Shown here piece after piece: positions 1,093 to 32,990 of a DNA stretch of 64,000 bases. Each line of letters begins with the position of its first letter. Position 1 is the stretch's first letter. A program made the position numbers and the translations under genes. Origin of the DNA: Alphaproteobacteria bacterium (GTDB lineage: Bacteria; Pseudomonadota; Alphaproteobacteria; SP197); assembly GCA_965200215.1 (NCBI GenBank), contig OZ241369.1, positions 1,027,787-1,091,786 of the forward strand. Direction: 5' to 3'. The notes beneath the pieces are model-generated. The model worked only from the letters and a program-made list of their open reading frames with translations, ran no database searches and was not told the origin of the DNA.

Positions 1093-1149
1093 GACGGTTT
1101 CCGCCAGGTTCGTTCGTCACCTTAGCGCATGGGGCGCGGGTGGCGGCGA

Positions 1150-1340
1150 GCGGTGCCTGGGTGGGGGGTGGTGCGTTGACCTTGCGGCCCGTTGCCGGCG
1201 GAACGCCGGCGCTTTGGCCAGTGGTCAGTGGCTAGTGGTCAGTGAGAGCGGGTGGTGGGGGCGGTGCCTGGGTGTGGGGCGGTCGGTGCGTTGGCGGCGG
1301 GACGCCGGCGCTCCCAGGGGGCGTGTGGCGGGCAGTGTGC
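1150..1340. repeat. composite GC-rich repeat element (two core copies flanking a heptamer array)
   Basis: Core hairpin motifs ...CGTTGACCTTGCGGCCCGTTGCCGGCGGAACGCCGGCGC... and ...GGCGGCGGGACGCCGGCGCTCCCAGGGGG... Confidence 0.75.
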
Positions 1341-1448
1341 CAGGGGCGCCGGGTGGTGGGTGGCGGGCGAAGCGCTCTTGCTTTTCGGCTTGCTCACGCT
1401 GCTGCCACAGGCTAAGCTGTTGCGACCGTCCCGCATGGAGCCATCGCC

Positions 1449-1712
1449 ATGACCCTTGCCGCCTTCGACACCCTCGCCGCCACCCGCGACCTGGAAGCGG
1501 CCGGCATGGAGCGGCGCCAGGCGGAAGCCGTCGCCGAGGTCACGGCACAGGCGGCCGTCACCGGCCATGGCGAGCTGGCCACCAAGGCGGACCTCGCCAC
1601 CGGTCTCGCCGATCTCAAAACCGCCATGGCGCGGCAGGAAGCGCGTATCTATCTGGCGCTGGTCGGGGTGGTCTTCGCCATCCTCGCCGCCGACAGGTTG
1701 CTGCCTTCGTAG
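1449..1712 (+). CDS. DUF1640-family coiled-coil protein with C-terminal TM helix (FDT...RQAEA...TKADL...LKTAMARQEARIYLALVGVVFAILAA)
   Basis: ORF track. Pattern matches my recollection of the DUF1640 (CCDC90-like) family. Paralog at 2644..2922 and a third copy at 22985..23206. Confidence 0.7.
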   Translation: MTLAAFDTLAATRDLEAAGMERRQAEAVAEVTAQAAVTGHGELATKADLATGLADLKTAMARQEARIYLALVGVVFAILAADRLLPS

Positions 1713-1932
1713 CAGGCTGCACCGGGGCGGCCCGTGGCCGCCGCAATGGAGCCCGCCGCCTTCGATACCCTCGCCGCCAGCCGCGGCCTGGAAGCGCCGG
1801 CATGGGGCGGTGCGTCGGCGGGCCTTGCGGCCCGTTTGCCGGCGGGACGCCGGCGCTCGGGGAAACGGTGCGTGGGCGGGCCTGACGGCCCGCCGGGGGG
1901 CGTGACGCTCGGTCGGTACTGGGGGGCGCCTT

Positions 1933-2280
1933 TCAGTTGGCGGCTTCGGCTTCGTCGGCGGGTGCCTGGGCCAGGCGGTCGGGGCGGGCCAGGGCGCCGG
2001 CAACCGTGCCCTCGATGCGCGCCATGCGCTCGCGCAACTCCGCCTGCCCCGCCTCGATGCGGACGAGGCGTTCCTCGACGCCGGCAAACCGCGTTTCGAT
2101 GCGGGTTTCCAGGGCGGCAAAGCGCGCCTCGATGGCGGCGAAGCGCTCCTCGATGCGGGTTTCCAGGGCGGAGAAGCGCGCTTCCAGGGCGGCCATGTCG
2201 GCCCGCTGCCAGCCGAACAAGACGACGTTCATGGCCGCGATGGCGAAGAACAGGGTGATGAAGGGGTTGACCTTTGGCAT
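1933..2280 (-). CDS. small TM/coiled-coil protein, paralog 2 (115 aa, extra hendecad repeats)
   Basis: ORF track; paralogy to 802..1092. Confidence 0.7.
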   Translation of the reverse strand: MPKVNPFITLFFAIAAMNVVLFGWQRADMAALEARFSALETRIEERFAAIEARFAALETRIETRFAGVEERLVRIEAGQAELRERMARIEGTVAGALARPDRLAQAPADEAEAAN

Positions 2281-2329
2281 GGCGGTTTCCGCCGGACGCG
2301 TTCGCTACCTTAGCGCATGGGGCGCAGGT

Positions 2330-2570
2330 GGCCAAGCGCGGCGGGCGATGGCGAGCAGTGCCTGGGTGGGGGTGGTGCGTTGACCTGGCGGCCCGTTGCC
2401 GGCGGGACGCCGGCGCTTTGGCCGGTGGCCGGTGGCCAGTGAGAGCGGGTGGTGGGGGCGGTGCCTGGGTGGGGCGGTCGGTGCGTTGGCGGCGGGACGC
2501 CGGCGCTCCCAGGGGGCGTGTGGCGGGCGGTGTGCCAGGGGCGCCGGGTGGTGGGTGGCGGGCGAAGTGG
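2330..2570. repeat. composite GC-rich repeat element
   Basis: Same module order as 1150..1340. Region 2300-2650 is a near-duplicate of 1100-1450. Confidence 0.75.
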
Positions 2571-2643
2571 TCTTGCTTCTCGGCTTGCTCACGCCGCTGC
2601 CACAGGCTAAGCTGTCGCGACCGCTCCGCATGGAGCCATCGCC

Positions 2644-2922
2644 ATGACCCTTGCCGCCTTCGACACCCTCGCCGCCACCCGCGACCTGGAAGCGGCCGGC
2701 ATGGAGCGGCGCCAGGCGGAAGCCGTCGCCGAGGTGACGGCACAGGCGGCCGTCACCGGCCATGGCGAACTGGCCACCAAGGCGGACATCAAGGACTTCG
2801 CCACCAAAGCCGACCTCGCCGATCTCAAGGCCGCCATGGCGCGGCAGGAAGCGCGCCTCTATCTGGCGTTGGTCGGGGTGGTCTTCGCCATCCTCGCCGC
2901 CGACAGGTTGCTGCCGTCGTAG
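2644..2922 (+). CDS. DUF1640-family coiled-coil/TM protein (paralog)
   Basis: ORF track; about 90% identical to 1449..1712. Confidence 0.7.
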   Translation: MTLAAFDTLAATRDLEAAGMERRQAEAVAEVTAQAAVTGHGELATKADIKDFATKADLADLKAAMARQEARLYLALVGVVFAILAADRLLPS

Positions 2923-3143
2923 CAGGTCGCGCCGGGGCGGCCCGTGGCCGCCGCAATGGAGCCCGCCGCCTTCGATACCCTCGCCGCCAGCAGCGGCCTG
3001 GAAACGTCGGCGTGGGGCGGTGTGGCAGAGGTGGTGCCTGGCGGCCCGTTGCCGGCGGGACGCCGGCGCTCGGGGAGCGGTGTGTGGGCGGGCCTGGCGG
3101 CCCGCCGGGGGGCGTGACGCTCGGTCGGTACTGGGGGCGCCCT

Positions 3144-3476
3144 TCAGTTGGCGGCGGTTTCGTCGGCGGGTGCCTGGGCCAGGCGGTCGGGGCGGGCCAG
3201 GGCGCCGGCAACCGTGCCTTCGATGCGCGCCATGCGCTCGCGCAACTCCGCCTGACCGGCCTCGATGCGGACGAGGCGTTCCTCGACGCCGGCGAACCGC
3301 GTTTCGATGCGGACCATGCGCTCGCGCAGCTCCACCTGCCCGGCCTCGATGCGGTTGAAGCGCGCCTCGATGCGGGTTTCCAGGGCGGTCATGTCGGCCC
3401 GCTGCCAGCCGAACAGGCCGATGTTCATGGCCGCGATGGCGAGGAACAAGGTGACGAGGGGGTTGATCTTCGGCAT
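3144..3476 (-). CDS. small TM/coiled-coil protein, paralog 3 (divergent: MPKINPLVTLFLAIAAMNIGLFGW)
   Basis: ORF track. Confidence 0.7.
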   Translation of the reverse strand: MPKINPLVTLFLAIAAMNIGLFGWQRADMTALETRIEARFNRIEAGQVELRERMVRIETRFAGVEERLVRIEAGQAELRERMARIEGTVAGALARPDRLAQAPADETAAN

Positions 3477-3688
3477 GACGGTTTCCGCCGGGCGCGTTCG
3501 CTACCTTAGCGCATGGGGCGCGGGTGGCCAAGCGCGGCGGGTGGCGGCGAGCGGTGCCTGGGTGGGGGGTGGTGCGTTGACCTTGCGGCCCGTTGCCGGC
3601 GGGACGCCGGCGCTCGGGGAGCGGTGTGTGGGCGGGCCTGGCGGCCCGCCGGGGAGCGTGACGCTCGGTCGGTACTGGGGGGCGCCCT

Positions 3689-3982
3689 TCAGTTGGCGGC
3701 TTCGGCTTCGTCGGTGGGCGCCTGGGCCAGGCGGTCGGGGCGGGCTAGGGCGCCGGCAACCGTGCCCTCGATGCGCGCCATGCGCTCGCGCAACTCCGCC
3801 TGCCCTGCCTCGATGCGGACGAGGCGTTCCTCGACGCCGGCAAACCTCGTTTCGATGCGGGTTTCCAGGGCAATGAAGCGCGCTTTCAGGGCAGCCATGT
3901 CGGCCCGCTGCCAACCGAACAAGACGACGTTCATGGCCGCGATGGCGAAGAACAGGGTGATGAAGGGGTTGACCTTTGGCAT
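3689..3982 (-). CDS. small TM/coiled-coil protein, paralog 4
   Basis: ORF track. Confidence 0.7.
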   Translation of the reverse strand: MPKVNPFITLFFAIAAMNVVLFGWQRADMAALKARFIALETRIETRFAGVEERLVRIEAGQAELRERMARIEGTVAGALARPDRLAQAPTDEAEAAN

Positions 3983-4242
3983 GACGGTTTCCGCCGGGCG
4001 CGTTCGCTACCTTAGCGCATGGAGCGCGGGTGGCCAAGCGCGGCGGGTGACGGCCGGTGGCTAGTGGCTAGTGGTCGGTGAGAGCGGGAAACGGGGGCGG
4101 TGCCTGACGGCGGGCGTGTGGTGCGTTGGCGGGCCTGGCGGCCCGTTTGCCGGCGGGATGCCGGCGCTCGGGGAGCGGTGTGTGGGCGGGCCTGGCGGCC
4201 CGCCGGGGGGCGTGACGCTCGGTCGGTACTGGGGGGCGCCCT

Positions 4243-4566
4243 TCAGTTGGCGGCGGTTTCGTCGGCGGGTGCCTGGGCTAGGCGGTCGGGGCGGGCCAGG
4301 GCGCCGGCGACCGTGCCTTCGATGCGCGCCATGCGCTCGCGCAGTTCCGCCTGACCGGCCTCGATGCGGACGAGGCGTTCCTCGACGGCGGCAAACCGCG
4401 TTTCGATGCGGGTTTCCAGGGCGGCAAAGCGCGCCTCGATGGCGGCGAAGCGCTCCTCGATGCGGGTTTCCAGGGCGGCCATGTCGGCCCGCTGCCAGCC
4501 GAACAAGACGACGTTCATGGCCGCGATGGCGAAGAACAGGGTGATGAAGGGGTTGACCTTTGGCAT
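4243..4566 (-). CDS. small TM/coiled-coil protein, paralog 5
   Basis: ORF track. Confidence 0.7.
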   Translation of the reverse strand: MPKVNPFITLFFAIAAMNVVLFGWQRADMAALETRIEERFAAIEARFAALETRIETRFAAVEERLVRIEAGQAELRERMARIEGTVAGALARPDRLAQAPADETAAN

Positions 4567-4599
4567 GACGGTTTCCGCCGGGCGCGTTCGCTACCTTAG

Positions 4600-4830
4600 C
4601 GCATGGGGCGCGGGTGGCCAAGGGTGGCGGGTGGCGGCCGGTGGCTAGTGGTTAGTGGTTAGTGGGAGCGGGGGGTGGGGGGTGGGGGCGGTGCCTGGCG
4701 GCGGGATGCTCGGTCGGTGCCTGGAGGCGGGGCGCCGGCGCTCGGGGGGATGGTGTGTGGGCGGGCCGGACGGCCCGCCGGGGGACGTGTGGCTGACGGC
4801 GGTGCCCGGGGGTGCGCTGGGTGGTGGGTG
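4600..4830. repeat. composite GC-rich repeat element
   Basis: Heptamer array + core motifs. Confidence 0.7.
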
Positions 4831-4833
4831 GCT

Positions 4834-5997
4834 TTAGTCCTGGTGGAAATGCCTGGACAGCGCCAGCCCCTGGCCCTGGTAGTGGCTGCCGAGGGCGGCG
4901 CCGTAGAGCAGGTCGGGCCGGGCCAGCAGGCGCTCGTAGCGCAGGCGGCCCATGATCTGGCCGTGTTCCAGGAGGAAGGGCACCTCGTGGCTGCGCACCT
5001 CCAGGACGGCGCGGGAACCGGCGCTGCCGTCGGCGCTCCAGCCGAAGCCGGGGTCGAAAAAGCCGGCGTAGTGGGCGCGGAATTCGCCGACCAGGGTGTC
5101 GTAGGCGGCCATTTCGGCGGCGTGATCGGGCGGCACCTTGACCTGCTCGCGGGTGGCCAGGAGGTAGAACTCGCCGGGATCGAGGATGAGGCGGCCATCG
5201 GCGGGGGGCGGGATGGGGTCCCAGAAGGCCCGCCAGTCCAGCGCCCCCTTACGGTCGATATCGACGATGCCGGCGTGGCGCCGGGCGCGGTAGCCCACCG
5301 GCGCGCCCGGCGCGGCGCCGCGCAGATCGAGCGTGACGGCCAGCGAATCTTCGCGGATGGACGCCTCGCCCTCGGGGGTGTCGACCAGGCGGTGGCGCTG
5401 GTGGAGGCGCGCGAGCGTCACCTCGCCGAAAACCGGCTTGCCGCGCCGGAGCCGCAATTGCGCCAGCCTGGAACCCTGCCTGACGACGGCGCTGAAGGTG
5501 CGCGGCGAGACCTCGGCATAGAGGCGGCCGCGATAGCCGCGCGGCACGCGGTCGAACTCGGTGGCGTAATCGGCGATGACGCGGGTGAAGACGTCGAGCC
5601 GGCCGGTGGAGCTCCTGGGATTGGCGAGGCCGGCGGTCTCGCCCGCGAGCCGCAGCCTTTCCTGCAAGGCCACGACATAGACGCAGCCCTTTTCCAGGAC
5701 GGCGCCGGCGGCCAGGTCGATGCGGTGCATGCCCAGCTGGGAGAGCTTGCGCTCCACCGTGGCGCGCGGTCCCGGCAGAAAGGAGGAGCGCACCCGCCAG
5801 GCGGTCGCGCCCAGGCGGAGATCGATGCTGGCGGGCTGGATCTGGCCGGGAACGAGGGGGCGGTCGGCGAAGATGGCCCTGCCCGCCCCTTCCCGCCCCT
5901 CGCCCACCAGGGCGCGCAGGCGCTGCGAGGGCAGCACGCCGGTGGTGGAGGCGGCGCCGTCGTCGTCGATGAAGCCGAAATGGAACTGTGTCGCCAC
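4834..5997 (-). CDS. dcd: 2'-deoxycytidine 5'-triphosphate deaminase family protein (long two-domain form)
   Basis: ORF track. Motif PASIDLRLG typical of the dCTP deaminase/dUTPase fold. About 387 aa, like the long alphaproteobacterial dCTP deaminase-like proteins. Confidence 0.6.
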   Translation of the reverse strand: MATQFHFGFIDDDGAASTTGVLPSQRLRALVGEGREGAGRAIFADRPLVPGQIQPASIDLRLGATAWRVRSSFLPGPRATVERKLSQLGMHRIDLAAGAVLEKGCVYVVALQERLRLAGETAGLANPRSSTGRLDVFTRVIADYATEFDRVPRGYRGRLYAEVSPRTFSAVVRQGSRLAQLRLRRGKPVFGEVTLARLHQRHRLVDTPEGEASIREDSLAVTLDLRGAAPGAPVGYRARRHAGIVDIDRKGALDWRAFWDPIPPPADGRLILDPGEFYLLATREQVKVPPDHAAEMAAYDTLVGEFRAHYAGFFDPGFGWSADGSAGSRAVLEVRSHEVPFLLEHGQIMGRLRYERLLARPDLLYGAALGSHYQGQGLALSRHFHQD

Positions 5998-6059
5998 GGC
6001 TGCCGCCCCCGACGCCCGGCGGCGAAGCTAGCAGGGTGGGCGGGGGGTGGGCGAGTGGG

Positions 6060-6314
6060 GGGGTAGTGGATAGTGGATAGTGGCCAGTAGCCAGTGGTCG
6101 GTGGCCAGTGGGAGCGGGTGGTGGAGAGGGTGCCCGGCGGTGGGGGGAGTGCGTTGACGGGCCTACGGCCCGTTTGCCGGCGGGACGCCGGCGCTCCCAG
6201 GGGGCGGGACGCCTGGGGGTGGTGGCAAACGGTGCCTGGCCGTTTTCGAACCTAGGCGCTACCGCAAAGATCCAGCGCCACCCGCTCTCACCATCCACTA
6301 ACCACTAGCCACTA
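6060..6314. repeat. composite GC-rich repeat element (heptamer arrays + core + GGCAAACGG...TTCGAACC terminal module), interrupted by IS
   Basis: Motifs as elsewhere. The heptamer array continues at 7165-7200 on the other side of the IS. Confidence 0.7.
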
Positions 6315-7162
6315 GGCTCAGGACCCATAAACGGTCTTGAGTATTGTTGTGAGAAGTGGTTCAAGCTCTTCCAGATATAGAGGAGGCTATCATGTCTGAC
6401 CACCACTTCTGGTTATCGGATGCCCAGTTCGCCCGCATCCAGCCGCTGTTGCCCAACAAGGTGCGCGGTGTGCCCCGGGTCGATGACCGGCGCGTCATCT
6501 CGGGCATCATCCACGTCATTCGCAACGGGCTGAGGTGGCGTGACGCGCCGCCTGAATACGGTCCTCACAAGACCCTCTACAACCGCTTCGTGCGCTGGAG
6601 CAGGGCTGGCGTATTCGGACGCATCTTCGAGGCTCTGGCTGCCGACAGCCGGGCGTCGGGGACGGTGATGATCGACGCCACCTACCTGAAGGCTCACCGG
6701 ACTGCGGCCAGCCTGCTCAAAAAGGGGCTTTTCCGCGATGTATCGGGCGTAGCCGAGGCGGCTTGAACTCGAAGCTGCACGCGGTTTGCGACGGCGATGG
6801 CAAGCCCTTGATCCTGCTGCTGACCGAGGGGCAGGCCAGCGACTACCGGGGTGCCGAGGCCATCTTGCCGGCAGTGCCGGACGCCGATGTCCTGATCGCC
6901 GACAAGGGCTATGACAGCGACCGTTTCCGCCAAGCCCTGGCCGAACGGCGCATCGAGACATGCATCCCCGGACGGGCGAACCGCAAGAGGCCGGTAGAAT
7001 ATGACCCAAAGCTATACCAGCGGCGAAACCTCATCGAACGGATGTTCGGAAGGCTCAAGGACTGGAGGCGCATCGCCACACGATACGACCGATGCGCGCA
7101 CACCTTCTTTAGCGCTATCTGCATCGCCGCCACCGTCATCTTCTGGTTATGAGTCCTGAGCC
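6315..7162 (+). mobile_element. IS5-family insertion sequence (IS427-group-like), about 848 bp, imperfect terminal IRs GGCTCAGGACCCATAAACGG / GGCTCAGGACTCATAACCAG (rc), flanked by TA duplication, inserted into a heptamer array
   Basis: Terminal inverted repeats found by eye. Two overlapping transposase ORFs. Flanks ...CCACTA|IS|TAGCCACTGG. Confidence 0.8.
6392..7152 (+). CDS. IS5-family transposase, orfA (6392..6766) and orfB (to 7152) joined by a programmed -1 frameshift near CTC-AAA-AAG (about 6716-6724)
   Basis: ORF track (6356..6766 and 6763..7152). orfB frame is -1 relative to orfA and open back to the A-run. AGGAGG RBS directly before ATG 6392. DDE_Tnp_1-type sequence in orfB. Confidence 0.8.
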
Positions 7163-7236: not shown

Positions 7237-8595
7237 ATGGTGGAAGCTGTGCGCGTGATCGGCGGCGGGCTGGCCGGGACGGAGGCGGCCTGGCAGATCG
7301 CGCGCGCCGGGCTGCCGGTGGTGCTGGAGGAGATGCGCCCGCAACGCTCCACCCCCGCCCACCGGACCGGGCTGCTGGCGGAGCTGGTCTGTTCCAACTC
7401 CTTCCGTTCCGACGACGGCGACAACAACGCCGTCGGCCTGCTGCACGAGGAGCTGCGGCGGGCCGGTTCCGTCGTGATGGCGGCGGCCGACCGCCACCGG
7501 GTGCCGGCGGGAAGCGCGCTGGCGGTGGACCGGGAGGGCTTCGCGGCGGCGGTGGAGGCGGCGGTGGCGGGCGAGAGGTCGATCGCGGTGGCCCGGCGCG
7601 AGGCGCGGCGCCTGCCCGATGCCGGCCCGGCCATCGTCGCCACCGGGCCGCTGACCTCCGACGCGCTGGCGGCCGACATCCTCCGGGCCACGGGGGCGGA
7701 GGCGCTGGCCTTTTTCGACGCCATCGCGCCCATCGTGCACCGCGACAGCATCGATTTCGACGTCGCCTGGATGCAGTCGCGCTACGACAAGGCGGGGCGC
7801 CCCGGCGACGAGGCGGCCTATATCAATTGCCCGCTTTCGAGGGACGCCTACGACGCTTTCGTGGACGGGCTGGTGGCGGCCGAGGAGGCCGGGTTCCGGG
7901 AGTGGGAGCGGGAGACGCCCTATTTCGAGGGCTGCCTGCCGATCGAGACCATGGCCAGGCGCGGGCGCAACAGCCTGCGTTTCGGCCCCATGAAGCCGGT
8001 GGGCCTCACCGACCCCGGAAGCGGCGAGCGGCCCTTCGCCGTGGTGCAGCTGCGCCAGGACAACGCGCAGGGGACGCTGTTCAACATGGTGGGCTTTCAG
8101 ACCAAGCTGAAGCACGGCGAGCAGCTGCGCCTGTTTCGCACCGTGCCCGGCCTGGGCGAGGCCCGTTTCGCGCGGCTGGGCGGGATGCACCGCAACACCT
8201 TCATCAACAGCCCGGCGCTGCTGGATGGGGCGCTGCGGCTGCGGCGGCGCCCGCATCTGCGCTTCGCCGGCCAGATCGCTGGCGTCGAGGGCTATGTGGA
8301 AAGCGCCGCCATCGGCCTGCTGGCCGGGCGCTTCGCGGCGCTGGAACGGCAGGGGCGCGCCATCCATCCACCGCCGGCGACCACCGCCCTGGGGGCGCTG
8401 CTGAACCACATCACGGTGGGCGCCGACGCCAGCAGCTTTCAGCCCATGAACTGCAATTTCGGGCTGTTCCCGCCGCCGGACCCGCGCCTGCGCGGCAAGC
8501 AGCGGCGCGCCTCCTTCGCCATCCGCGCCCGCGCCGATCTCGGCGCCTGGCTGCAACGGCACGAAGGGCTGTTTGCGGGAGGGGCTGGGGGTTAG
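7237..8595 (+). CDS. trmFO: methylenetetrahydrofolate--tRNA-(uracil54-C5)-methyltransferase TrmFO
   Basis: ORF track. N-terminal FAD motif [12 protein letters not shown]. Conserved [14 protein letters not shown] region. Confidence 0.9.
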
Positions 8596-8599
8596 GGGC

Positions 8600-9135
8600 C
8601 GGTGGCCGGTGGCCAGTGGTTAGTGGTTAGTGGCTAGTGGTCAGTGGCTAGTGGTGCGGGTGGTGTGTGGCGGTGCCTGGCGGTGGGGTGTGGTGCGTTG
8701 ACGGGCCTTGCGGCCCGTTTGCCGGCGGGACGCCGGCGCTCCCAGGGGGCGCGTGTGGCTGACGATGGTGCCTGGGGCAGGTGGCTAGTGGTCAGTGGCC
8801 GGTGGCTAGTGGCCAGTGGTGCGGGTGGTGTGTGGCGGTGCCTGGCGGTGGGGTGTGGTGCGTTGACGGGCCTTGCGGCCCGTTTGCCGGCGGGACGCCG
8901 GCGCTCCCAGGGGGCGCGTGTGGCTGACGATGGTGCCTGGGGCAGGTGGCTAGTGGTCAGTGGCCGGTGGCTAATGGCCAGTGGTGCGGGTGGTGTGTGG
9001 TGGTGCCTGGCGGTGGGGACGGTGCGTGGGCGGGCCTTCGGCCCGTTTGCCGGCGGGACGCCGGCGCTCGGGGAAACGATGTGTGGGCGGGCCTGACGGC
9101 CCGCCGGGGGGCGTGACGCTGGCGGCGGTGCCTGG
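8600..9135. repeat. three tandem copies of the composite repeat element (about 178-bp units duplicated at 8644-8820 and 8822-9000, plus a third core)
   Basis: Near-identical tandem blocks, each ending in heptamer arrays. Confidence 0.75.
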
Positions 9136-24389: not shown

Positions 24390-25208
24390 ATGGCGAAGAA
24401 GCCCGGTGGAAAGGGCGAGAGCATCGCAACCCTCGATCCCGACGCGCTCCAGAAGCTCCTGTGCGAGCGTCTGTGCGAGGACGTAAGGGTCGAACGCCGT
24501 CCCGACGGCGCGCTGATGCTGCGCGCCCATTTCCGCTTCCCGGACGGCGATGGCTACCCCATCCATCTTTGCCAGGCGCCCGCCGGCGGGCTGCGGCTGT
24601 CGGATCGCGGCCACACCCTCATGCATCTGAGCTATGAGCACGACGTCGACATGTTCATGGACGGCACCCGCGCCATGCTGCTCGAACGCATCCTGACGGA
24701 GAGCGGTTTGCAGTGGGAGGGCGGCGCCTTGTGCCTGGACACCGCCCCGGAACGGCTGCCGGAGGCGCTGTTCCGCTTCGGCCAGGCGCTCACCAGGGTA
24801 TACGACCTGACCTTCCTCTCCCGTTCCAATGTCGGTTCCACCTTTTACGACGATCTCGCCGACCTTCTCCGCCAGCTGGTGGACGAGGACAAGATGCAGC
24901 GCGATTACCGGCCGGACGTGCCCAATGCCGACGCCTATCCGGTGGATTACCGCATCGAGGGCAAGGACGGCGTGCCGCTGTTCCTCTACGGCGTGCCCAA
25001 TCGCGACAAGGCGCGGCTAACGACCGTCATGTTGTCGCACTTCCATCGCCACGCGCTCGATTTCGAGTCCATCGTCGTGTTCGAGGACCAGGCCGAGATG
25101 CCCAGGATGGACCTGGCCCGCCTTTCGGACGTCGGCGGGGAGATGGTCGCATCGCTGGAATCGCGGGAGGATCTCGCACGCAAGCTGCGGTGGCGGATTG
25201 CGGCGTGA
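24390..25208 (+). CDS. hypothetical protein (DUF1828/DUF1829-like two-domain protein; assignment tentative)
   Basis: ORF track; codon usage typical of the host GC. Confidence 0.5.
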   Translation: MAKKPGGKGESIATLDPDALQKLLCERLCEDVRVERRPDGALMLRAHFRFPDGDGYPIHLCQAPAGGLRLSDRGHTLMHLSYEHDVDMFMDGTRAMLLERILTESGLQWEGGALCLDTAPERLPEALFRFGQALTRVYDLTFLSRSNVGSTFYDDLADLLRQLVDEDKMQRDYRPDVPNADAYPVDYRIEGKDGVPLFLYGVPNRDKARLTTVMLSHFHRHALDFESIVVFEDQAEMPRMDLARLSDVGGEMVASLESREDLARKLRWRIAA

Positions 25209-25600: not shown

Positions 25601-25665
25601 GCCCGGCGTATCGACGGTTTGGCTTTTCCGGGCCACACTGCGGGTGTGGCGTGGGGGTGGATTTC

Positions 25666-28600
25666 ATGGTGGGGAAGCGCAGGGGGGCGAAGAGCAAGGG
25701 GGTTGCCGCCTTTACCCATGAGGGGGCGCGGCGGGCGAACATTCCCACCGCCGAGCTCGACGCGGTGATGGCCGAGGGCGAGAAGGCGGCGGTTCGCATC
25801 GCCTATGAGCGCCGCAACCGAGATCTGGACCCGCAGCTGGTCTGGCGCGGCAAGGACGAGCAGGACCAGGCCGATCTGGTGGTCCAGGCGCCGCCGCTCT
25901 ACATCCAGGAGAAGGTGCACCCCAAGGCGCTGATCGACGACCTGCTGCGCCAGTCGAAGCGGCGGCGCGACGAGGCGGCCGAAGAGGCCCCGGACCTGTT
26001 CGCCGATTTCAACGGCCTGCCCGAAGGCGCCGCCCGAACCGAGTTCTACCGCCACGACGCCAACTGGTCGAACCGCATGATCCTGGGCGACGCGCTGCGG
26101 GTGATGGCCTCGCTGGCCGAGCGCGAGGGCCTGCGCGGCAAGGTGCAGGCGATCTATATCGACCCGCCCTACGGCATCCGCTTCAACTCCAACTTCCAGT
26201 GGTCCACCGGCAGCCGCGACGTGAAGGACGGCAAGGCGGCGCATATCACCCGCGAGCCGGAGCAGGTGAAGGCCTTTCGCGACACCTGGCGCGACGGCAT
26301 CCATTCCTATCTCTCCTATCTGCGCGACCGGCTGACGGTGGCCCGCGAGCTGCTGGCCCCGAGCGGCTCGGTATTCGTGCAGATCGGCGACGAGAACGTC
26401 CACCGGGTGCGGGCGGTGATGGACGAGGTGTTCGGGGAGGGGAATTTCGTCAACCAGATCAACTGCCGCACGAATAGCGGAACCACAAGAGGCGACTCAC
26501 TCAAGCGAACGAACGACTACCTGCTTTGGTACGCAAAGAATATCGAAAGCAAGAAGTTTCGGCGATTGCTGGTTGAGCGAGACGTCGAAACAAACATGTA
26601 TAGTCAGCTCCTTTTTGAGGATTTGTCAGTTCGTCCCATGACTCAGGAAGAGAAGAAAAAGCCAACGCTAATTCCCGACACGGCTAGAGCATATAGGAAA
26701 TTACCACTCCACTCGATGAACGCCGGAGACCATACACCGCGGAAAGCATTCGGAAGGTATTGGAAAATACCATCTAACCGCAGTTGGCGCCATTCCCTGG
26801 CCGGTTTCGACCGGCTCTTGCGGTCATCTCGAATACAAGCAGACCTGAGTGCTCTTAGCAGCCGCTATTTCCACAGCGACTATATCGCCTCCGAGCTAAC
26901 CGAGACTTGGGTGGATACAGGCCCCGAAGTGGACAAGTCCTACGTAGTCCAGACGTCCGAGCGGATTGTCCAACGCTGCCTGCTGATGACCACCGACCCC
27001 GGCGACCTGGTGCTGGACCCGACCTGCGGTTCCGGCACCACCGCCTATGTCGCCGAGCAATGGGGCCGGCGCTGGATCACCATCGACACCTCGCGGGTGG
27101 CGCTGGCGCTGGCCCGGGCGCGGATCATGGGCGCGCGCTATCCCTGGTATATCCTGGCCGACAGCCCGGAAGGGCAGAGGAAGGAAGCGGAACTGGACCG
27201 GCGCGCGCCTTCCGAGGCGGCGACCGGCGGCGATGTCCGCCAGGGCTTCGTCTATCGGCGGGTGCCGCATGTGACGCTGAAATCGATCGCCAACAATGCG
27301 GAGATCGATGCGATCTGGGAGAGGTGGGAGGGGGTGTTGGGGGCGTTGCGGAGTCAACTATCAGTTGCCAGTGGCCAGTCGCCAGTGGCCAGTGACCGGC
27401 AACCGGCGACTGGCGACCGGCCACCGGCCACCGGCAACCGGCCACTGGAGGAATGGCAGATTCCCCGCGAGGCTGGCGCCGGCTGGCCCGACGAGGCGAA
27501 GGCGGCGCATGCCGAGTTCTGGCAGGCGCGCATCGGACGGCAGAAGGAGATCGACGCCTCCATCGCCGCCAGGGCCGACAGCGAATATCTCTACGACAAG
27601 CCCTATGAGGACAGGGAGCGCATCCGCGTCGCCGGCCCGTTCACGGTGGAAAGCCTGGCGCCGCACCGCACCGTGGCCAGCGAGGGGGAAGGCGCCGCCG
27701 AAGACGGCCACGGATACCACGGCGGCGGGGCCTTCCCGGAACGCGATTTCACCGCCCTGGTGCTGGAGCAGCTGCGGGCTGCCGGCGTGCAGCAGGCCCG
27801 CAAGGACGACCGCATCGACATCGCCTCCATCGAGGGCTGGCCGGGGCGTTCCATCTGCGCCACGGGGCGCTTTCGCGAAGGCGGGGCCGAACGCCGGGCC
27901 GGCATCCTGATCGGCCCCGAATTCGGCACCGTTTCCAAGCCCGACCTGACCGCCGCCGCCCGCGAGGCGGCCGAGGCCGGTTTCGACGCGCTGATCGCCT
28001 GCGCCTTCAGCTACGACGCCCATGCCAGCGAGTTCGACCGCCTGGGCCGGGTGCCGGTGCTGAAGGCGCGCATGAACGCCGATCTGCACATGGCCGGCGA
28101 GCTGAAGAACACCGGCAAGGGGAACCTGTTCGTGGTGTTCGGGGAGCCTGATATAGAAGTGGCCGGTGGCCGGTGGCTAGTGGCCAGAAACGGGAAGATG
28201 ATCGCGCGTTATGAGCACGTCAAAGAGCTATCAGGACTTGGAAGTCTGGAAGAAATCAATGGAGCTGGCGGAAGAGGTCTATCGGCTCTCTGCCGGGTGG
28301 CCGGCGGAGGAGCGATTCGGTCTGACCGGTCAGATGCGCCGCGCGACGGTGTCCATCCCGGCGAACATCGCGGAGGGAGCGGAGCGGCACGGAACGCGGG
28401 AGTTTCTCCACTTTCTGGGGATAGCGAGCGGCTCCCTGGCGGAAACGGAGACCCTTCTGATTCTGGCCCGGAGGCTGGGGATGTCTCCGCCCGAACGGAT
28501 TTCACCGCTTCTGGAACGAGCCGGGGAGATCGGACGGATGCTCAACGGCCTCAAGCGATCGCTGCGATCGAGGCATTGAACGACGGCGACTTCCCGCTTT

Positions 28601-28944
28601 CACTGACCACCGGCCACTGGCTACAGGTCGCCATTCGCGGTATCGACATTTATCGCCCCGACACGGGTCAGATTCACAGCGACGGTCCCGACGGCATCGC
28701 GCTGTGGTTCGTGGACAGCGACTACAACGAGGAGAGCTTTTTCGTTCGCCAGGCCTATTTCCTGGGCGCCAACGACCCCTACAAGGCGCTGAAGACGACG
28801 CTGAAGGCCGAGATCGACCCGCAGGCCTGGGCGAGCCTGAACAGCGACACCTCCCGCCCCTTCCCCGCCCCCGCCTCGGGCCGCATCGCCGTCAAGGTCA
28901 TCAACCACCTGGGCGACGAGGCGATGAAGGTGTTCCGGGTGTGA
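25666..28944 (+). CDS. type III-like Mod DNA methyltransferase (beta-class N6A/N4C MTase: motif IV IYIDPPYG precedes motif I DPTCGSGTT), mosaic ORF with AT-richer TRD (about 26460-26900) and two repeat-associated insertions; integrity uncertain
   Basis: ORF track 25651..28944 (ATG 25666 alternative). MTase motifs. Conserved C-terminal module ...RIAVKVINHLGDEAMKVFRV. Confidence 0.65.
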   Translation: MVGKRRGAKSKGVAAFTHEGARRANIPTAELDAVMAEGEKAAVRIAYERRNRDLDPQLVWRGKDEQDQADLVVQAPPLYIQEKVHPKALIDDLLRQSKRRRDEAAEEAPDLFADFNGLPEGAARTEFYRHDANWSNRMILGDALRVMASLAEREGLRGKVQAIYIDPPYGIRFNSNFQWSTGSRDVKDGKAAHITREPEQVKAFRDTWRDGIHSYLSYLRDRLTVARELLAPSGSVFVQIGDENVHRVRAVMDEVFGEGNFVNQINCRTNSGTTRGDSLKRTNDYLLWYAKNIESKKFRRLLVERDVETNMYSQLLFEDLSVRPMTQEEKKKPTLIPDTARAYRKLPLHSMNAGDHTPRKAFGRYWKIPSNRSWRHSLAGFDRLLRSSRIQADLSALSSRYFHSDYIASELTETWVDTGPEVDKSYVVQTSERIVQRCLLMTTDPGDLVLDPTCGSGTTAYVAEQWGRRWITIDTSRVALALARARIMGARYPWYILADSPEGQRKEAELDRRAPSEAATGGDVRQGFVYRRVPHVTLKSIANNAEIDAIWERWEGVLGALRSQLSVASGQSPVASDRQPATGDRPPATGNRPLEEWQIPREAGAGWPDEAKAAHAEFWQARIGRQKEIDASIAARADSEYLYDKPYEDRERIRVAGPFTVESLAPHRTVASEGEGAAEDGHGYHGGGAFPERDFTALVLEQLRAAGVQQARKDDRIDIASIEGWPGRSICATGRFREGGAERRAGILIGPEFGTVSKPDLTAAAREAAEAGFDALIACAFSYDAHASEFDRLGRVPVLKARMNADLHMAGELKNTGKGNLFVVFGEPDIEVAGGRWLVARNGKMIARYEHVKELSGLGSLEEINGAGGRGLSALCRVAGGGAIRSDRSDAPRDGVHPGEHRGGSGAARNAGVSPLSGDSERLPGGNGDPSDSGPEAGDVSARTDFTASGTSRGDRTDAQRPQAIAAIEALNDGDFPLSLTTGHWLQVAIRGIDIYRPDTGQIHSDGPDGIALWFVDSDYNEESFFVRQAYFLGANDPYKALKTTLKAEIDPQAWASLNSDTSRPFPAPASGRIAVKVINHLGDEAMKVFRV
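27355..27450. repeat. palindromic heptamer-repeat array inserted in-frame inside the Mod coding region
   Basis: GCCAGTG/GCCAGTC units followed by their inverse (CCGGCAA/CCGGCGA...); translates as VASGQSPVASDRQPATGDRPPATGNRP. Confidence 0.75.
28211..28579 (+). CDS. four-helix-bundle protein (23S rRNA intervening-sequence protein family-like), nested inside the Mod ORF in a different frame
   Basis: ORF track. Sequence MSTSKSYQDLEVWKKSMELAEEVYRLS...IPANIAEG...ETETLLILARRLG matches my recollection of that family. Flanked by heptamer repeats at about 28160-28195 and 28595-28625. Confidence 0.6.
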   Translation: MSTSKSYQDLEVWKKSMELAEEVYRLSAGWPAEERFGLTGQMRRATVSIPANIAEGAERHGTREFLHFLGIASGSLAETETLLILARRLGMSPPERISPLLERAGEIGRMLNGLKRSLRSRH

Positions 28945-28948
28945 GGCC

Positions 28949-30079
28949 ATGGCGGGGCTGGACTGGATCACCATCGAGGGTTTCAAGAGCATCGCCTCCA
29001 TCGAGAGGCTGCCGCTGCGCCCGATCAACGTGCTGATCGGCGCCAACGGTTCGGGGAAGTCGAATTTCGTCGAGGCCTTTTCGTTTCTGCACGCGATACG
29101 GTCCAGGAAGCATCACGACCATGTCATGCGCGCGGGGGGCGGCGACAGGATTCTTCATTTCGGCGCGCGAACGACGCCCCAGTTGAAGCTTCACATCTCT
29201 TTCGAAGAACAAGTGTATCAATATGAGATAGCACTGGCGCCGGACGATGGAGATCACCTCTTTCCGTCGGGGGAATGTACCTATTTCTGGAACAAACATG
29301 TGTATGAACCTTACATCGAGCCCCTTATGGGAAGCCATGGCCATGCGGGCATCAGCCGCCCGTATTTCAAGCCAACAACACCCACAGCGAATTATGTCCA
29401 GAAGCACCTGGACAGCTGGCGCCTGTATCACTTCCCGGATACCGGCGCCGCATCGCCGCTGAAGAAGACGGGCGACGTAAACGACAACCGCTTTCTGCGG
29501 CCCGACGGCTCCAACCTGGCGGCGTTCCTGTATCGGCTGCGCGAGACGGAGCAGGACCGCTACCGGCTGATACGGGACACGGTGCGCCTGGCGGCGCCGT
29601 TCTTCGAGGATTTCGCGCTCGAACCCCTGGTCCTGCACGAGGACAAGATCCCCCTGGAGTGGAAGCACCGGGGGAAAGACGCCTATTTCGACGCCTCCTC
29701 CCTTTCGGACGGCACCCTGCGCTTCATGGCGCTGGCGACGCTGCTGCTTCAGCCGCAGACGCTGCGGCCCTCGGCCATCCTCCTGGACGAGCCGGAACTG
29801 GGCCTGCACCCCTATGCCATCGCGCTTCTCGCCTCGCTGATCGGGCAGGCTTCGGCCGAGACCCAGGTGATTCTGGCCACCCAGTCCTCGCTGCTGCTGG
29901 ACCATTTCAGCCCCGAAGACGTGCTGGTGGCGGAGCGGGCGCGCGGGGCCACCACGCTGACCCGGCTGAAGCCCGAAGAGCTGAAGGAATGGCTGGACGA
30001 CTACAGCCTGGGCCAGCTGTGGGAGAAGAACGAGTTCGGCGGGCGCCCCTCACCCGAAGAGGCGGGCGAGAGGGGATGA
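28949..30079 (+). CDS. AAA_21/ABC-type ATPase (OLD/abortive-infection-like ATPase; Walker A GANGSGKSN, Walker B LLDEPELGLHP)
   Basis: ORF track; start immediately after the Mod stop. Confidence 0.7.
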   Translation: MAGLDWITIEGFKSIASIERLPLRPINVLIGANGSGKSNFVEAFSFLHAIRSRKHHDHVMRAGGGDRILHFGARTTPQLKLHISFEEQVYQYEIALAPDDGDHLFPSGECTYFWNKHVYEPYIEPLMGSHGHAGISRPYFKPTTPTANYVQKHLDSWRLYHFPDTGAASPLKKTGDVNDNRFLRPDGSNLAAFLYRLRETEQDRYRLIRDTVRLAAPFFEDFALEPLVLHEDKIPLEWKHRGKDAYFDASSLSDGTLRFMALATLLLQPQTLRPSAILLDEPELGLHPYAIALLASLIGQASAETQVILATQSSLLLDHFSPEDVLVAERARGATTLTRLKPEELKEWLDDYSLGQLWEKNEFGGRPSPEEAGERG

Positions 30080-30321
30080 CGCGCCTGCTCGTGCATGTGG
30101 AAGGCCAGACGGAGGAGAGTTTCGTCGACCGGATTCTGGCGCCTCACCTTTACCGGCGCGGCTTTTCTTCGATCGGCGCCCGCCTGCTCGGCAACGCCCG
30201 CCAGCGCGAGCGGCGCGGCGGCATCAAGCCCTGGCACGCGGCCCGCAGGGACATCCTGGGCCATCTGCGGCAGGACCGCGAGGCCGTGGCCAGTGGCCGG
30301 TGGCTAGTGGTTAGTGGCTAG
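30076..30321 (+). pseudogene. DUF4276-like gene remnant (N-terminal about 80 aa: MTRLLVHVEGQTEESFVDRILAPHLY...), truncated by insertion of a repeat element
   Basis: ATGA start/stop overlap with the ATPase. Family members are about 200 aa (from memory). ORF ends inside a long heptamer array. Confidence 0.5.
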
Positions 30322-30560
30322 TGGTTAGTGGCTAGTGGTTAGTGGCTAGTGGTTAGTGGCTAGTGGTTAGTGGTCGGTGGGCGGTGGCCAGTAGCCGGTG
30401 GCTAGTGGTTAGTGGTTAGTGGGAGCGGGTGGTGGGGGTGGTGCCTGGCGGTGGGGTGTGGTGCGTTGACGGGCCTGCGGCCCGTTTGCCGGCGGGACGC
30501 CGGCGCTCCCAGGGGGGCGCCGGGTGGCGGGGGCGCGGTAAGGGCGGCAACCATGGCGAG
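30290..30560. repeat. composite GC-rich repeat element with long heptamer array ((GGCTAGT GGTTAGT) x7)
   Basis: Direct inspection. Confidence 0.8.
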
Positions 30561-30640: not shown

Positions 30641-32116
30641 ATGAGCGGACCTGCCAGCGATTCTTCGCCCAATCGGTCGCCGAAGGCTCCCGATGTGCGC
30701 ATCTCCGTCAGCAATTTCGGCCCCATCGCGAAGGGAAGCATCGACCTTCGGCCCATGAACATCTTCGTCGGGCCGAGCAACACGGGCAAGACCTATTTTG
30801 CCACCTTGATCTATGCAATTCATCGAATCACGAGGGGTTTTCCGCGACTCCCTCCAACTATGAGCTACATTTTCAACGATGTTGAAAATTTTGCGGGGGT
30901 GATTTACCAGATTGTTAAGAATTTTGACTCTGGACAAAGAAATCATCCTGGATCCGGGCGCGACCGGATTCAGCCCACGCTTATCGATCACAATCCCGTG
31001 GCCCATGACTGGGAAATTGAATTAGAGCGTTGCTTCGATGTCGGTGCTCTTTCCGAACTGATTCAGACTCAAAGCGAATCAACCGGAGCAAAGATCGATC
31101 TGTCAATCGAGGATAAAAAGAGCCTCCTTTGGAATTTTCATGTAAAGGTGCCGACTCACGGTATTCGGGGCGATGGAAAGATAGGGAATTTCAAAATTGA
31201 GCACATATTTCCTGATTTCGAAAAGAAAGCTGAAAAAGTATTCTCGGCCAATTCAATAATAGAGGCTATAACCAACCTACAGAAACTGTTCGAATTCGAG
31301 AAATCAAACGAATCCGACGTGTACTACCTGCCATCCGACAGAGGCGGTCTCATACATAGCCACCCCGCTATCGCAATATCTTTGCTTAAACGTGCAACTC
31401 GACTGAACACCAAGCGCCATTCGGAGATCCCCACTTTCTCCGGGGTTATGACCGATTTCATGCGGCATATCATCGCCTATGAGGATTCCGAACTGCGTGA
31501 CGAAAAGCCGGAGAACGAGTTGGCGAAAATCGCGAGCGAATTGGAAAGCCGGGTGCTCGATGGAAGGATCGAGACTGTCCGGGCAGCGTCCCGCGGCTAT
31601 CCTGACGTGGTGTATCGGCCGGAGGGAATGGAAAAGGGCATGCGGTTGAATCGCGCCTCGTCCATGGTATCCGAACTCGCGCCGGTGGTCCTCTTCATCC
31701 GTGGCCATGTTCGCGTCGGCGACACCGTAATCATCGACGAGCCGGAAGCCCATCTTCATCCCGCCGCGCAGACCGAGATGGCGACGGCGCTGGCGCGTCT
31801 GGTGCGGGCCGGCGTTCGGGTGGTGATGACCACGCACAGCGAATGGCTGCTCCAGGAGATCGGCAACCTGATGCGGGAGGGGGAGTTGGGGGAAGGGAAT
31901 GGCGACTCTCCGAGTCTTCATCCTCGCGACGTCGGCGCCTGGCTATTCAAGAAGAAAGGATCGGAGGGCTCCAACGTGGAGGAGATTCGATTCGACCGCA
32001 TCGAAGGCATCGGGCCGCCGGATTACGAAGACGTCGCCGAAAGCCTCTATAACCGCTCGGCAGAGCTGCAGAACCGCCTCGCAGAGACGGACGGCGGCGG
32101 CGAGTCGGGGGCATGA
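30641..32116 (+). CDS. AAA-type ATPase (AAA_15/21-like; Walker A VGPSNTGKTYF, Walker B VIIDEPEAHLHP), AT-richer gene
   Basis: ATG 30641 (GGGGGA RBS) within ORF 30614..32116. Confidence 0.7.
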   Translation: MSGPASDSSPNRSPKAPDVRISVSNFGPIAKGSIDLRPMNIFVGPSNTGKTYFATLIYAIHRITRGFPRLPPTMSYIFNDVENFAGVIYQIVKNFDSGQRNHPGSGRDRIQPTLIDHNPVAHDWEIELERCFDVGALSELIQTQSESTGAKIDLSIEDKKSLLWNFHVKVPTHGIRGDGKIGNFKIEHIFPDFEKKAEKVFSANSIIEAITNLQKLFEFEKSNESDVYYLPSDRGGLIHSHPAIAISLLKRATRLNTKRHSEIPTFSGVMTDFMRHIIAYEDSELRDEKPENELAKIASELESRVLDGRIETVRAASRGYPDVVYRPEGMEKGMRLNRASSMVSELAPVVLFIRGHVRVGDTVIIDEPEAHLHPAAQTEMATALARLVRAGVRVVMTTHSEWLLQEIGNLMREGELGEGNGDSPSLHPRDVGAWLFKKKGSEGSNVEEIRFDRIEGIGPPDYEDVAESLYNRSAELQNRLAETDGGGESGA

Positions 32117-32589
32117 GCGCCGCCCTTGCGCGCATCCGCTCGAAGGTGGGGGAAAACAGTCTCTCCAAGTCGTGCGGGCGGGATGGTTGCCGCGCGTATA
32201 TGAAGGGCATACCGGCTTGCAGGGTCATCGTCGATATGGATAAAGCCCCCGCCGCCCGACATGCGGGAGGTAAGCGATGCGATTTCGTTCTTTTCTTTAT
32301 CCAGGAAAGCGGAAAGCTCATCGTGGCGCCTATCGAGCTCAAGAGCGGCCATGTCGACGGCTCCGAGGCGGCGGAACAATTGCGCAATGGAACGGGGTTT
32401 GCAGACCGCGCCTCGCCGGCAAAGCCCGAGCCTCATTGCCGTCCGATTCTGTTCCACGGCAAGGGCATACATCCACAACAACGCAAGGCGCTCAACCGCA
32501 GCAAGATCACCTTTCGCGGCAGCAAGCTTACCATAATGACGGCCCGCTGCAACCGGCCGCGCAATCTGGCTGGCGTTCTGGGCATGTGA
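32113..32589 (+). CDS. small protein with putative PD-(D/E)xK nuclease-like motif (D in CDFVLFF ... IELKSG), translationally coupled (ATGA) to the upstream ATPase
   Basis: ORF track; motif spotted by eye, not verified by profile search. Confidence 0.5.
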   Translation: MSAALARIRSKVGENSLSKSCGRDGCRAYMKGIPACRVIVDMDKAPAARHAGGKRCDFVLFFIQESGKLIVAPIELKSGHVDGSEAAEQLRNGTGFADRASPAKPEPHCRPILFHGKGIHPQQRKALNRSKITFRGSKLTIMTARCNRPRNLAGVLGM

Positions 32590-32619: not shown

Positions 32620-32990
32620 AGGCCGGGGGCGGCGGTGGCCAGTGGTCAGTCGCGGGTGGTGGGGGTGGTGCCTGGCGGTGGGGTCGGTGCGTTGACGGGC
32701 CTTTGGCCCGTTTGCCGGCGGGACGCCGGCGCTCCCAGGGGGCGGGACGCTCGGTCAGTGGTTAGTGGCTAGTGGTCAGTGGCCGGGCGCCAGTGGTGCG
32801 GGTGGTGTGTGGCGGTGCCTGGCGGTGGGGACGGTGCGTTGACGGGCCTTTGGCCCGCTTGCCGGCGGGACGCCGGCGCTCGGGGGATGGTGTATGGGCG
32901 GGCCTGACGGCCCGCCGGGGGGCGTGACGCTGGCGGCGGTGGCTGGGGGCGCGGGTGGTAGGGGCGGTACCTGAAGGTGGGGGGTGGCTT
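32620..32990. repeat. composite GC-rich repeat element (two cores)
   Basis: Motifs. Confidence 0.7.

Follow-up and report, generated by a model that had tools for sequence, protein, structure and literature searches.

The stretch of DNA analysed here, called the window throughout, comprises 64,000 nucleotides (nt) of contig OZ241369.1 (assembly GCA_965200215.1) from an alphaproteobacterium of the GTDB lineage SP197, and carries on its plus strand a pair of genes, an ATPase gene followed by a small nuclease gene, that together span 1,949 nt. The first gene (30641..32116, plus strand) encodes an ABC-type, OLD/PD-T4-4_A-like ATPase of 491 amino acids (aa), and the second (32113..32589, plus strand), identified as an open reading frame (ORF), a small PD-(D/E)xK nuclease of 158 aa that resembles WonB and the published 'novel REase' (restriction endonuclease). 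The two are translationally coupled through an ATGA stop/start overlap, read directly from the sequence at 32113..32116 (plus strand), and the genes likewise abut in 45 of 45 related loci. The ORF of the first gene runs from 30614 or 30641 to 32116; the start at 30641 is preferred because a Shine-Dalgarno-like GGGGGA run lies upstream of it, because it agrees with P0044, a public gene call of 491 aa, and because the closest ATPase homologues (66-83% identity) measure 493-509 aa. This last range also rules out an N-terminal truncation, which had been suspected from homologues of 534-544 aa; the more distant relatives are 520-545 aa long. The guanine plus cytosine (GC) content is 54.8% in the ATPase gene and 60.6% in the small gene, against 71% in the window and 71-76% in the downstream housekeeping genes, so that the composition of the pair is foreign. 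Both the overlap and the AT-richness had been pointed out in an earlier description made from the letters alone (the sequence-only reading), and both stand.

The ATPase matches the Pfam families AAA_15 (6.9e-21) and AAA_21. Its Walker A motif GPSNTGKT, with K50, lies at 30770..30793 (plus strand), its Walker B and D-loop IIDEPEAHLHP, with D366 and E367, at 31730..31762 (plus strand), and the H-loop residue H399 at 31835-31837 (plus strand). Across the family the Walker A motif, YLPxxR (R234), the RASSMVSE signature (residues 338-345), the Walker B/D-loop (I/E)EPEAHLHP and TTHS around H399 are invariant. A variable helical insert occupies approximately residues 65-320 and a C-terminal extension approximately residues 415-491. 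In an alignment to WonA, the ATPase of the Vibrio cholerae WonAB system, K34, R182, E300 and H333 of WonA fall on K50, R234, E367 and H399, all of them invariant in the family. When the protein was compared with 5,027 PADLOC models the best were PD-T4-4_A (3e-34, 117 bits) and PDC-M47A (1.4e-24), followed at lower ranks by NsnB, AriA, HEC-02A, Old, GajA and PtuA, and the ranking with PD-T4-4_A and PDC-M47A on top was repeated in 41 of 41 ATPase homologues. The PD-T4-4_A match is partial, covering residues 293-411, mainly in the C-terminal half. BLASTP gave 4e-10 to WonA and 2e-18, collinearly, to a Nostoc 'OLD-ABC ATPase', and the predicted fold has PtuA, AriA, OLD and GajA as structural neighbours.

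The small protein has no match in Pfam or NCBIfam. Its structural model (predicted local distance difference test score, pLDDT, of 93) folds as a PD-(D/E)xK nuclease and shows the alpha-beta-beta-beta-alpha-beta core, the Asp at the start of strand 2 and the (D/E)xK of strand 3 by which the superfamily is recognized. Matches of the model to the Protein Data Bank (PDB) by Foldseek were weak (best E 7.7e-3) and nonetheless of the correct fold; a PDB sequence search with the nuclease family profile returned chance matches only (E ≥ 0.017), and no close solved structure was found in the PDB for either protein. While a word-indexed search collected 43 clusters, the exhaustive profile search of 1.84 billion representatives yielded 1,270 with a threshold of E ≤ 1e-3 and 750 with one of E ≤ 1e-10, and the clusters, formed at 50% identity, have lengths mostly of 150-165 aa. 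In 49 diverse members C26, C56, D57 and E75 are invariant, and D41, D43, K77, G79, Q89, L90, P111 and C146 are conserved in at least 90%; D57, E75 and K77 are invariant or nearly so when 25 close homologues are considered together with the 49 diverse ones. The residues of the core are thus D43, C56-D57, E75-x-K77 and Q89, and the catalytic segment, delimited by conservation and by the alignment of K77 with WonB K71, extends on the plus strand from D57 (32281-32283) to E75-L-K77 (32335-32343), that is 32281..32343. Four cysteines are conserved: C21 and C26, forming a Cx4C in an N-terminal beta-hairpin, C56 immediately before the catalytic D57, and C146 near the C-terminus. From their conservation, they may build a structural metal site (Zn or Fe-S) whose fourth ligand would have moved relative to WonB homologues.

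The proposal of the sequence-only reading that a P-loop ATPase is followed by a protein with a PD-(D/E)xK core is borne out by these data: the Walker A, Walker B and H-loop were located and the family motifs are invariant, D57 and E75-L-K77 are conserved within a model of pLDDT 93, and structure prediction gave matching folds for nuclease and ATPase alike.

Several comparisons relate the pair to systems already described. WonAB, from the V. cholerae WASA-1 prophage, consists of an OLD-type ABC ATPase and a 16-kDa 'variant PD-(D/E)xK' nuclease (Adams et al. 2025, PMC12137116). Its activity in phage defence has been shown experimentally and needs both genes, the ATPase motifs (WonA K34, R182, E300 and H333) and WonB K71 (PMC12137116). 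Fourteen WonB/novel REase sequences were taken from Supplementary Tables 4-5 of the same paper. The window nuclease (KRCDFVLF...PIELKSG...EQL) shares with them the core (K/R)CD(F/Y/W)...(I/V)ELK(G/S)...Q(I/L), and hhalign of the 49-member nuclease family against the 14 published sequences gave a probability of 95.2% (E 2.7e-8, 61 columns, approximately 26% identity), pairing D43 with WonB D40, C56-D57 with C52-D53, and E75 and K77 with E69 and K71. A hidden Markov model (HMM) of the nuclease family recovered 13 of the 14, V. cholerae WonB at 7e-7, ahead of all 396 background ORFs; the reverse HMM, built from the 14 published sequences, found the window nuclease at E 1.4e-4 (16.6 bits) with no background match among 459 sequences. 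The PADLOC PDC-M47B models are the best for the nuclease family and match 22 of its 25 close homologues and 28 of the 49 diverse ones (best 4.7e-10), while those of PD-T4-4_B reach 1e-2 to 1e-3 in only three of the 25 and three of the 49. As judged from these profiles and alignments, both window proteins are remote yet specific homologues of the components of WonAB, novel REase, PDC-M47 and PD-T4-4, and their subfamily lies at the limit of what existing models detect, or past it.

We propose, with a probability of roughly 0.78 and by analogy with those systems, that the pair is an intact two-gene anti-phage module of the abortive-infection type, a diverged relative of WonAB, PD-T4-4 and PDC-M47. 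Two overlapping small genes, a toxic-looking nuclease, a mobile context and the match to AAA_21 ('putative AbiEii toxin') could also be expected of a toxin-antitoxin or addiction module, in which the nuclease would be the toxin and the ATPase an antitoxin, stabilizing the island with no part in phage defence. This explanation is very unlikely. The ATPase is a complete ABC enzyme whose catalytic motifs are all invariant, and the PADLOC families closest to it are defence systems, either validated or candidate. Moreover, over-produced WonB is toxic only alongside active WonA, DNA remaining intact while translation stops, and is degraded by Lon; the K71A change abolishes defence and toxicity together (PMC12137116). 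Because WonB needs both the presence and the catalytic activity of WonA to be toxic, simple sequestration of a toxin is excluded there, and a simple toxin-antitoxin reading of the window pair was rejected on the genetics of WonAB.

Linkage of the two genes is strict. In 45 of 45 related loci, drawn from 43 distinct places in one-genome-per-species contigs and, in addition, from metagenome contigs, an ATPase homologue ends at most approximately 50 nt upstream of the small gene; the ATPase identity across these loci is 40-48%, with a single locus at 33%. Conservation of the gene neighbourhood, which the sequence-only reading had left as a point to be checked, accordingly goes far beyond chance as regards the pair itself. 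The hosts belong to at least eight phyla and include metagenome-assembled genomes (MAGs) of Vicinamibacterales/Acidobacteriota, Alpha- and Gammaproteobacteria, Caldilineaceae and Latescibacterota, as well as MAGs of Poribacteria, Entotheonella, Nitrospirales, Opitutales and Defluviicoccus. The neighbourhoods of the related loci vary widely and often consist of plain housekeeping genes, as in L001/L004, L002, L049 and L050, where the pair is set among them. Taking into account: (i) the linkage in all 45 loci; (ii) the spread over at least eight phyla, and (iii) the unrelated neighbourhoods, the data indicate that the pair is an autonomous, horizontally moving module. Across phyla the proteins are 45-62% identical, and this suggests an exchange confined to a single habitat. 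Going by names, that habitat may be the marine sponge: nearly all hosts are MAGs of lineages typical of sponge microbiomes (Poribacteria, Entotheonella, Latescibacterota, Caldilineaceae and Vicinamibacterales), and the bin names, RHO2_, IRC1_ and SB0661 among them, look like those of symbiont consortia.

The same distribution bears on the idea that the pair would serve housekeeping DNA repair or recombination, its ABC ATPase being RecF/SbcC/Rad50-like and its nuclease structure-specific. Such a role is extremely improbable for a pair that is patchy, horizontally distributed over many phyla and placed in variable neighbourhoods, whose composition is foreign, and whose ATPase has a hypervariable region between near-identical genomes; besides, a coiled coil, a partner of the Mre11 kind and an NCBIfam equivalog are all lacking.

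The variation between close relatives is best seen at locus L047, which shares with the window 90% nucleotide identity over 6.2 kilobases (kb) of downstream housekeeping genes. Upstream of the gene for the FGE-sulfatase, the L047 hotspot contains TIR_2, LD_cluster2 and ThsB_TIR genes, the pair, and an AAA_21 + DUF3226 pair. At 1126-3875 and 7712-9474 of L047, the TIR/ThsB and AAA_21 + DUF3226 genes take the place of the methyltransferase and HEC-01 genes of the window. The locus is a variable defence hotspot whose content differs between strains. The ATPase itself is a mosaic: its residues 1-320 show only 20-60% identity between window 30641-31600 and L047 5545-6585, a region that includes a stretch of 42-47% GC, whereas identity rises to 80-92% over residues 361-480 and is 75% for the nuclease at the protein level, and the last third of the ATPase gene together with the nuclease gene has 82% nucleotide identity. 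The low-GC stretch, delimited by the GC profile at 30841..31441 (plus strand) and by the comparison with L047, is a candidate swapped sensor module, and the N-terminal region of the ATPase looks like a recombinational replacement of the sensor part. The mosaic fits a swappable sensor joined to a docking-plus-effector unit that evolves as one, and it also fits docking of the nuclease on the C-terminal part of the ATPase, as has been predicted for WonB on WonA (PMC12137116).

A working model for the module can be outlined by homology. The ATPase would form a head-to-head dimer of the ABC type, in which K50, R234, the signature, E367 and H399 would make up composite ATP sites. The variable helical insert (approximately residues 65-320) would sense a phage cue, while the conserved C-terminal part would hold the nuclease. 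Once infection is sensed, ATP binding or hydrolysis would license the nuclease, acting through D57, E75 and K77 with D43 and Q89, and the licensed enzyme would cleave nucleic acid and arrest phage development, to the detriment of the cell. As for the substrate, EcPD-T4-4, when purified, assembles into higher-order complexes and left all 11 DNA substrates uncut; because of this lack of DNA cleavage and of the WonB phenotype, the target might be RNA of the translation apparatus, not bulk DNA, a tentative assignment to which we give somewhat less than even odds.

Some observations weigh against the proposed defence module or its kinship with WonAB. The similarity of the nuclease to WonB is limited to approximately 61 core columns, and its N-terminal Cys hairpin and C-terminal strands are unlike those of V. 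cholerae WonB. The score obtained with the reverse HMM, 16.6 bits, is probably below a genome-scale threshold; the window nuclease itself reaches only E 0.0045 (14.7 bits) with PDC-M47B and a marginal E 0.027 (12.2 bits) with PD-T4-4_B. Searches by tblastn with the nuclease against plasmid and phage collections, and with the ATPase against plasmids, gave zero matches. Promoter and terminator scans gave no consensus match and are uninformative in an organism of 71% GC. The RNA target is itself a deduction in the WonAB paper (PMC12137116), and a methyltransferase gene that frequently neighbours the pair leaves room for a role in DNA restriction.

In the window the pair stands in a row of genes ordered as DUF1828, methyltransferase, HEC-01A, HEC-01B remnant, pair, repeats and FGE-sulfatase. 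The DUF1828/PDC-M24B-like gene (24390-25208; Pfam and PADLOC), a Type III-like methyltransferase (N6/N4) ORF of 1,097 aa (25651-28944) and a HEC-01A-like ABC ATPase gene (28949-30079; PADLOC 2e-132) lie upstream of the pair. The HEC-01A-like gene shares an ATGA overlap with the remnant of a HEC-01B/DUF4276 (TOPRIM-like) gene, the HEC-01 pair spanning 28949-30318. Of the HEC-01B/DUF4276 gene approximately 72 codons are left before the ORF meets a GGCTAGT/GGTTAGT array at approximately 30290, and this upstream HEC-01-like system appears, from its sequence, to be inactivated. The ORFs at 19.4-24 kb of the window have no Pfam or PADLOC match.

Repeats enclose the pair on both sides. The upstream boundary (30286..30508, plus strand) consists of an array of the 7-nt repeat GGCTAGT/GGTTAGT (approximately 30286-30423) and one copy of a 48-nt element resembling repetitive extragenic palindromes (REP), and the downstream boundary (32631..32881, plus strand) of two REP-like copies (32664-32734 and 32811-32881) with short 7-nt arrays. 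The 48-nt REP-like element (GTGCGTTGACGGGCC..GGCCCGTTTGCCGGCGGGACGCCGGCGCTC, two hairpins) is specific to the lineage; the window has 10 of them, each on the plus strand (6149, 9022, 10310, 17474, 18237, 19473, 30461, 32687, 32834 and 34988), where none is expected by chance. Its copies usually adjoin arrays of 7-nt units, and related copies are found at cassette boundaries of L047. What the sequence-only reading had said of the surroundings, repeats on both flanks and a location within a defence island, agrees with the REP-like copies at 30461, 32687 and 32834 and with the DUF1828/PDC-M24B-like, methyltransferase and HEC-01-like neighbours.

The association with the methyltransferase deserves separate consideration. 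Of 47 other loci, 16 encode a homologue of the window enzyme (52-73% identity) upstream of the pair and on its strand, and in six of these the methyltransferase gene abuts the ATPase gene. This could mean that a system of the restriction-modification (RM) kind has the pair as its restriction arm: the methyltransferase, often with DUF1828, would mark self DNA and the pair would cut unmodified incoming DNA. The arrangement is nonetheless absent from most loci: approximately 60% have no such methyltransferase within approximately 4.4 kb upstream, and in L001/L004, L002, L049 and L050 the pair is set among housekeeping genes. In L048 and L012 duplicated methyltransferase 3' ends bracket the cassette, which looks like the mark of an insertion next to the gene, not of a co-evolved operon. 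L048 has in addition its own Type III Res gene, and WonAB and PD-T4-4 work with no methyltransferase. We consider the restriction-arm explanation unlikely, and continue to favour the proposed abortive-infection module.

The duplications are well delineated in two loci. Immediately after the nuclease gene of L048 the 3' end of the methyltransferase recurs over 218 nt, as a direct repeat of 93.6% identity (5959-6276 and 8488-8700). L012 has the order methyltransferase, pair, methyltransferase 3' fragment and a further pair (2-1792, 1796-3888, 3884-4351 and 4413-6501). Copies of the last approximately 70-110 methyltransferase codons flank the cassette, and fragments are also present in L006, L008, L018, L021, L041 and L044. 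This pattern suggests, from sequence comparison, that cassettes would insert at the methyltransferase 3' end and duplicate it, and the duplicated ends agree with the 'embedding' that has been described in the literature for defence cassettes within RM, BREX and Hma loci.

The window methyltransferase shows irregularities of its own. The 16 homologues from other loci align only to its residues 10-837 and 991-1097, the intervening 153 codons being an insertion (28162-28620). Inside the insertion, in another frame, lies an intact ORF for a 23S-rRNA-IVP four-helix bundle (28211-28579; Pfam 7.7e-39), and the methyltransferase frame stays open across it. A 7-nt repeat array is translated within the same methyltransferase ORF at approximately 27300-27450.

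A more speculative idea, which we hold to be doubtful, is that the methyltransferase 3' end is a dedicated site of cassette insertion, that the pair is coupled to methylation, or both, with the low-GC part of the ATPase as a swappable specificity module. If so, the pairs, the window HEC-01 pair and the 23S-rRNA-IVP gene would have been inserted or stacked at that site, and each insertion would regenerate or duplicate the last approximately 70-110 methyltransferase codons; were the coupling functional, the subfamily would be a methylation-aware ATPase-nuclease.

Viewed as a defence module related to WonAB, the pair brings to the WonAB/PD-T4-4 class a large branch that lacked annotation, not a new kind of system. 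The nuclease family comprises approximately 1,270 clusters, has no Pfam or NCBIfam model and is covered marginally by PADLOC. The replacement of the ATPase N-terminal region and insert in L047 points to where sensing and effector docking would reside, and the set of four cysteines may be a structural metal site; both are testable leads for the whole ATPase-nuclease class.

An ABC sensor working with a nuclease is the logic that the pair has in common with Gabija, PARIS, OLD, HEC-01 (ABC ATPase and TOPRIM) and Septu (PtuA with the HNH protein PtuB). It differs from all of them in its PD-(D/E)xK effector and in its inserts and C-terminal extensions. Membership of Gabija, PARIS, OLD or HEC-01 was rejected on the PD-(D/E)xK partner, no TOPRIM or DUF4276 match being found in the pair, and membership of Septu on the lack of an HNH partner, PtuA being merely a structural neighbour of the ATPase. 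[quoted passage not shown] Homology by PADLOC, HMM and hhalign takes away most of the novelty claimed there, and keeps its view of an ATPase acting with a nuclease.

PDC-M47 is a PADLOC candidate from the cassettes embedded in BREX, DISARM and RM systems (Payne et al., bioRxiv 2024.01.29.577857). It resembles the pair in its RM-embedded or RM-adjacent context. Its A model matches the window ATPase at 1.4e-24, its B model the window nuclease only at E 0.0045, and 21 of the 49 diverse nuclease family members are missed by the B models. The entry for PD-T4-4 of Escherichia coli ECOR58 reads 'ATPase, nuclease', with a length of 1,973 nt for both ORFs (Vassallo et al. 2022, PMC9519451). As compared through models and descriptions, its ATPase is of the ABC type, it is classed with a PD-(D/E)xK nuclease, and its size is nearly that of the window pair (1,973 against 1,949 nt).

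A further close parallel is WonAB, whose description ties it to an operon, 'OLD-ABC ATPase + novel REase', that was reported in a survey of ABC ATPases made in 2020 and is found in 0.96% of complete genomes (PMC12137116). In WonAB and in OLD-ABC/novel REase, as in the window pair, the gene of an ABC ATPase precedes that of a nuclease of 140-175 aa; the nuclease signature D..(K/R)CD(F/Y/W)...(I/V)ELK(G/S)...Q(I/L) is common to WonAB and the pair, and WonA has the motifs (E/D)EPEAHL(F/H)P, ASS..(Q/S)E and THS of the window ATPase. The differences concern the periphery of the proteins and their context. Many WonB homologues have an N-terminal CxxC or CxxxC together with VDGC and (K/R)CD, whereas the window nuclease has a Cx4C hairpin instead, and C146 and extra C-terminal strands besides. 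The window ATPase is longer by approximately 90 aa or more than the portion of WonA compared, and the inserts differ. Finally, unlike WonAB, the pair is not carried by a prophage, its hosts are mostly uncultured lineages, and a methyltransferase gene is often adjacent to it.

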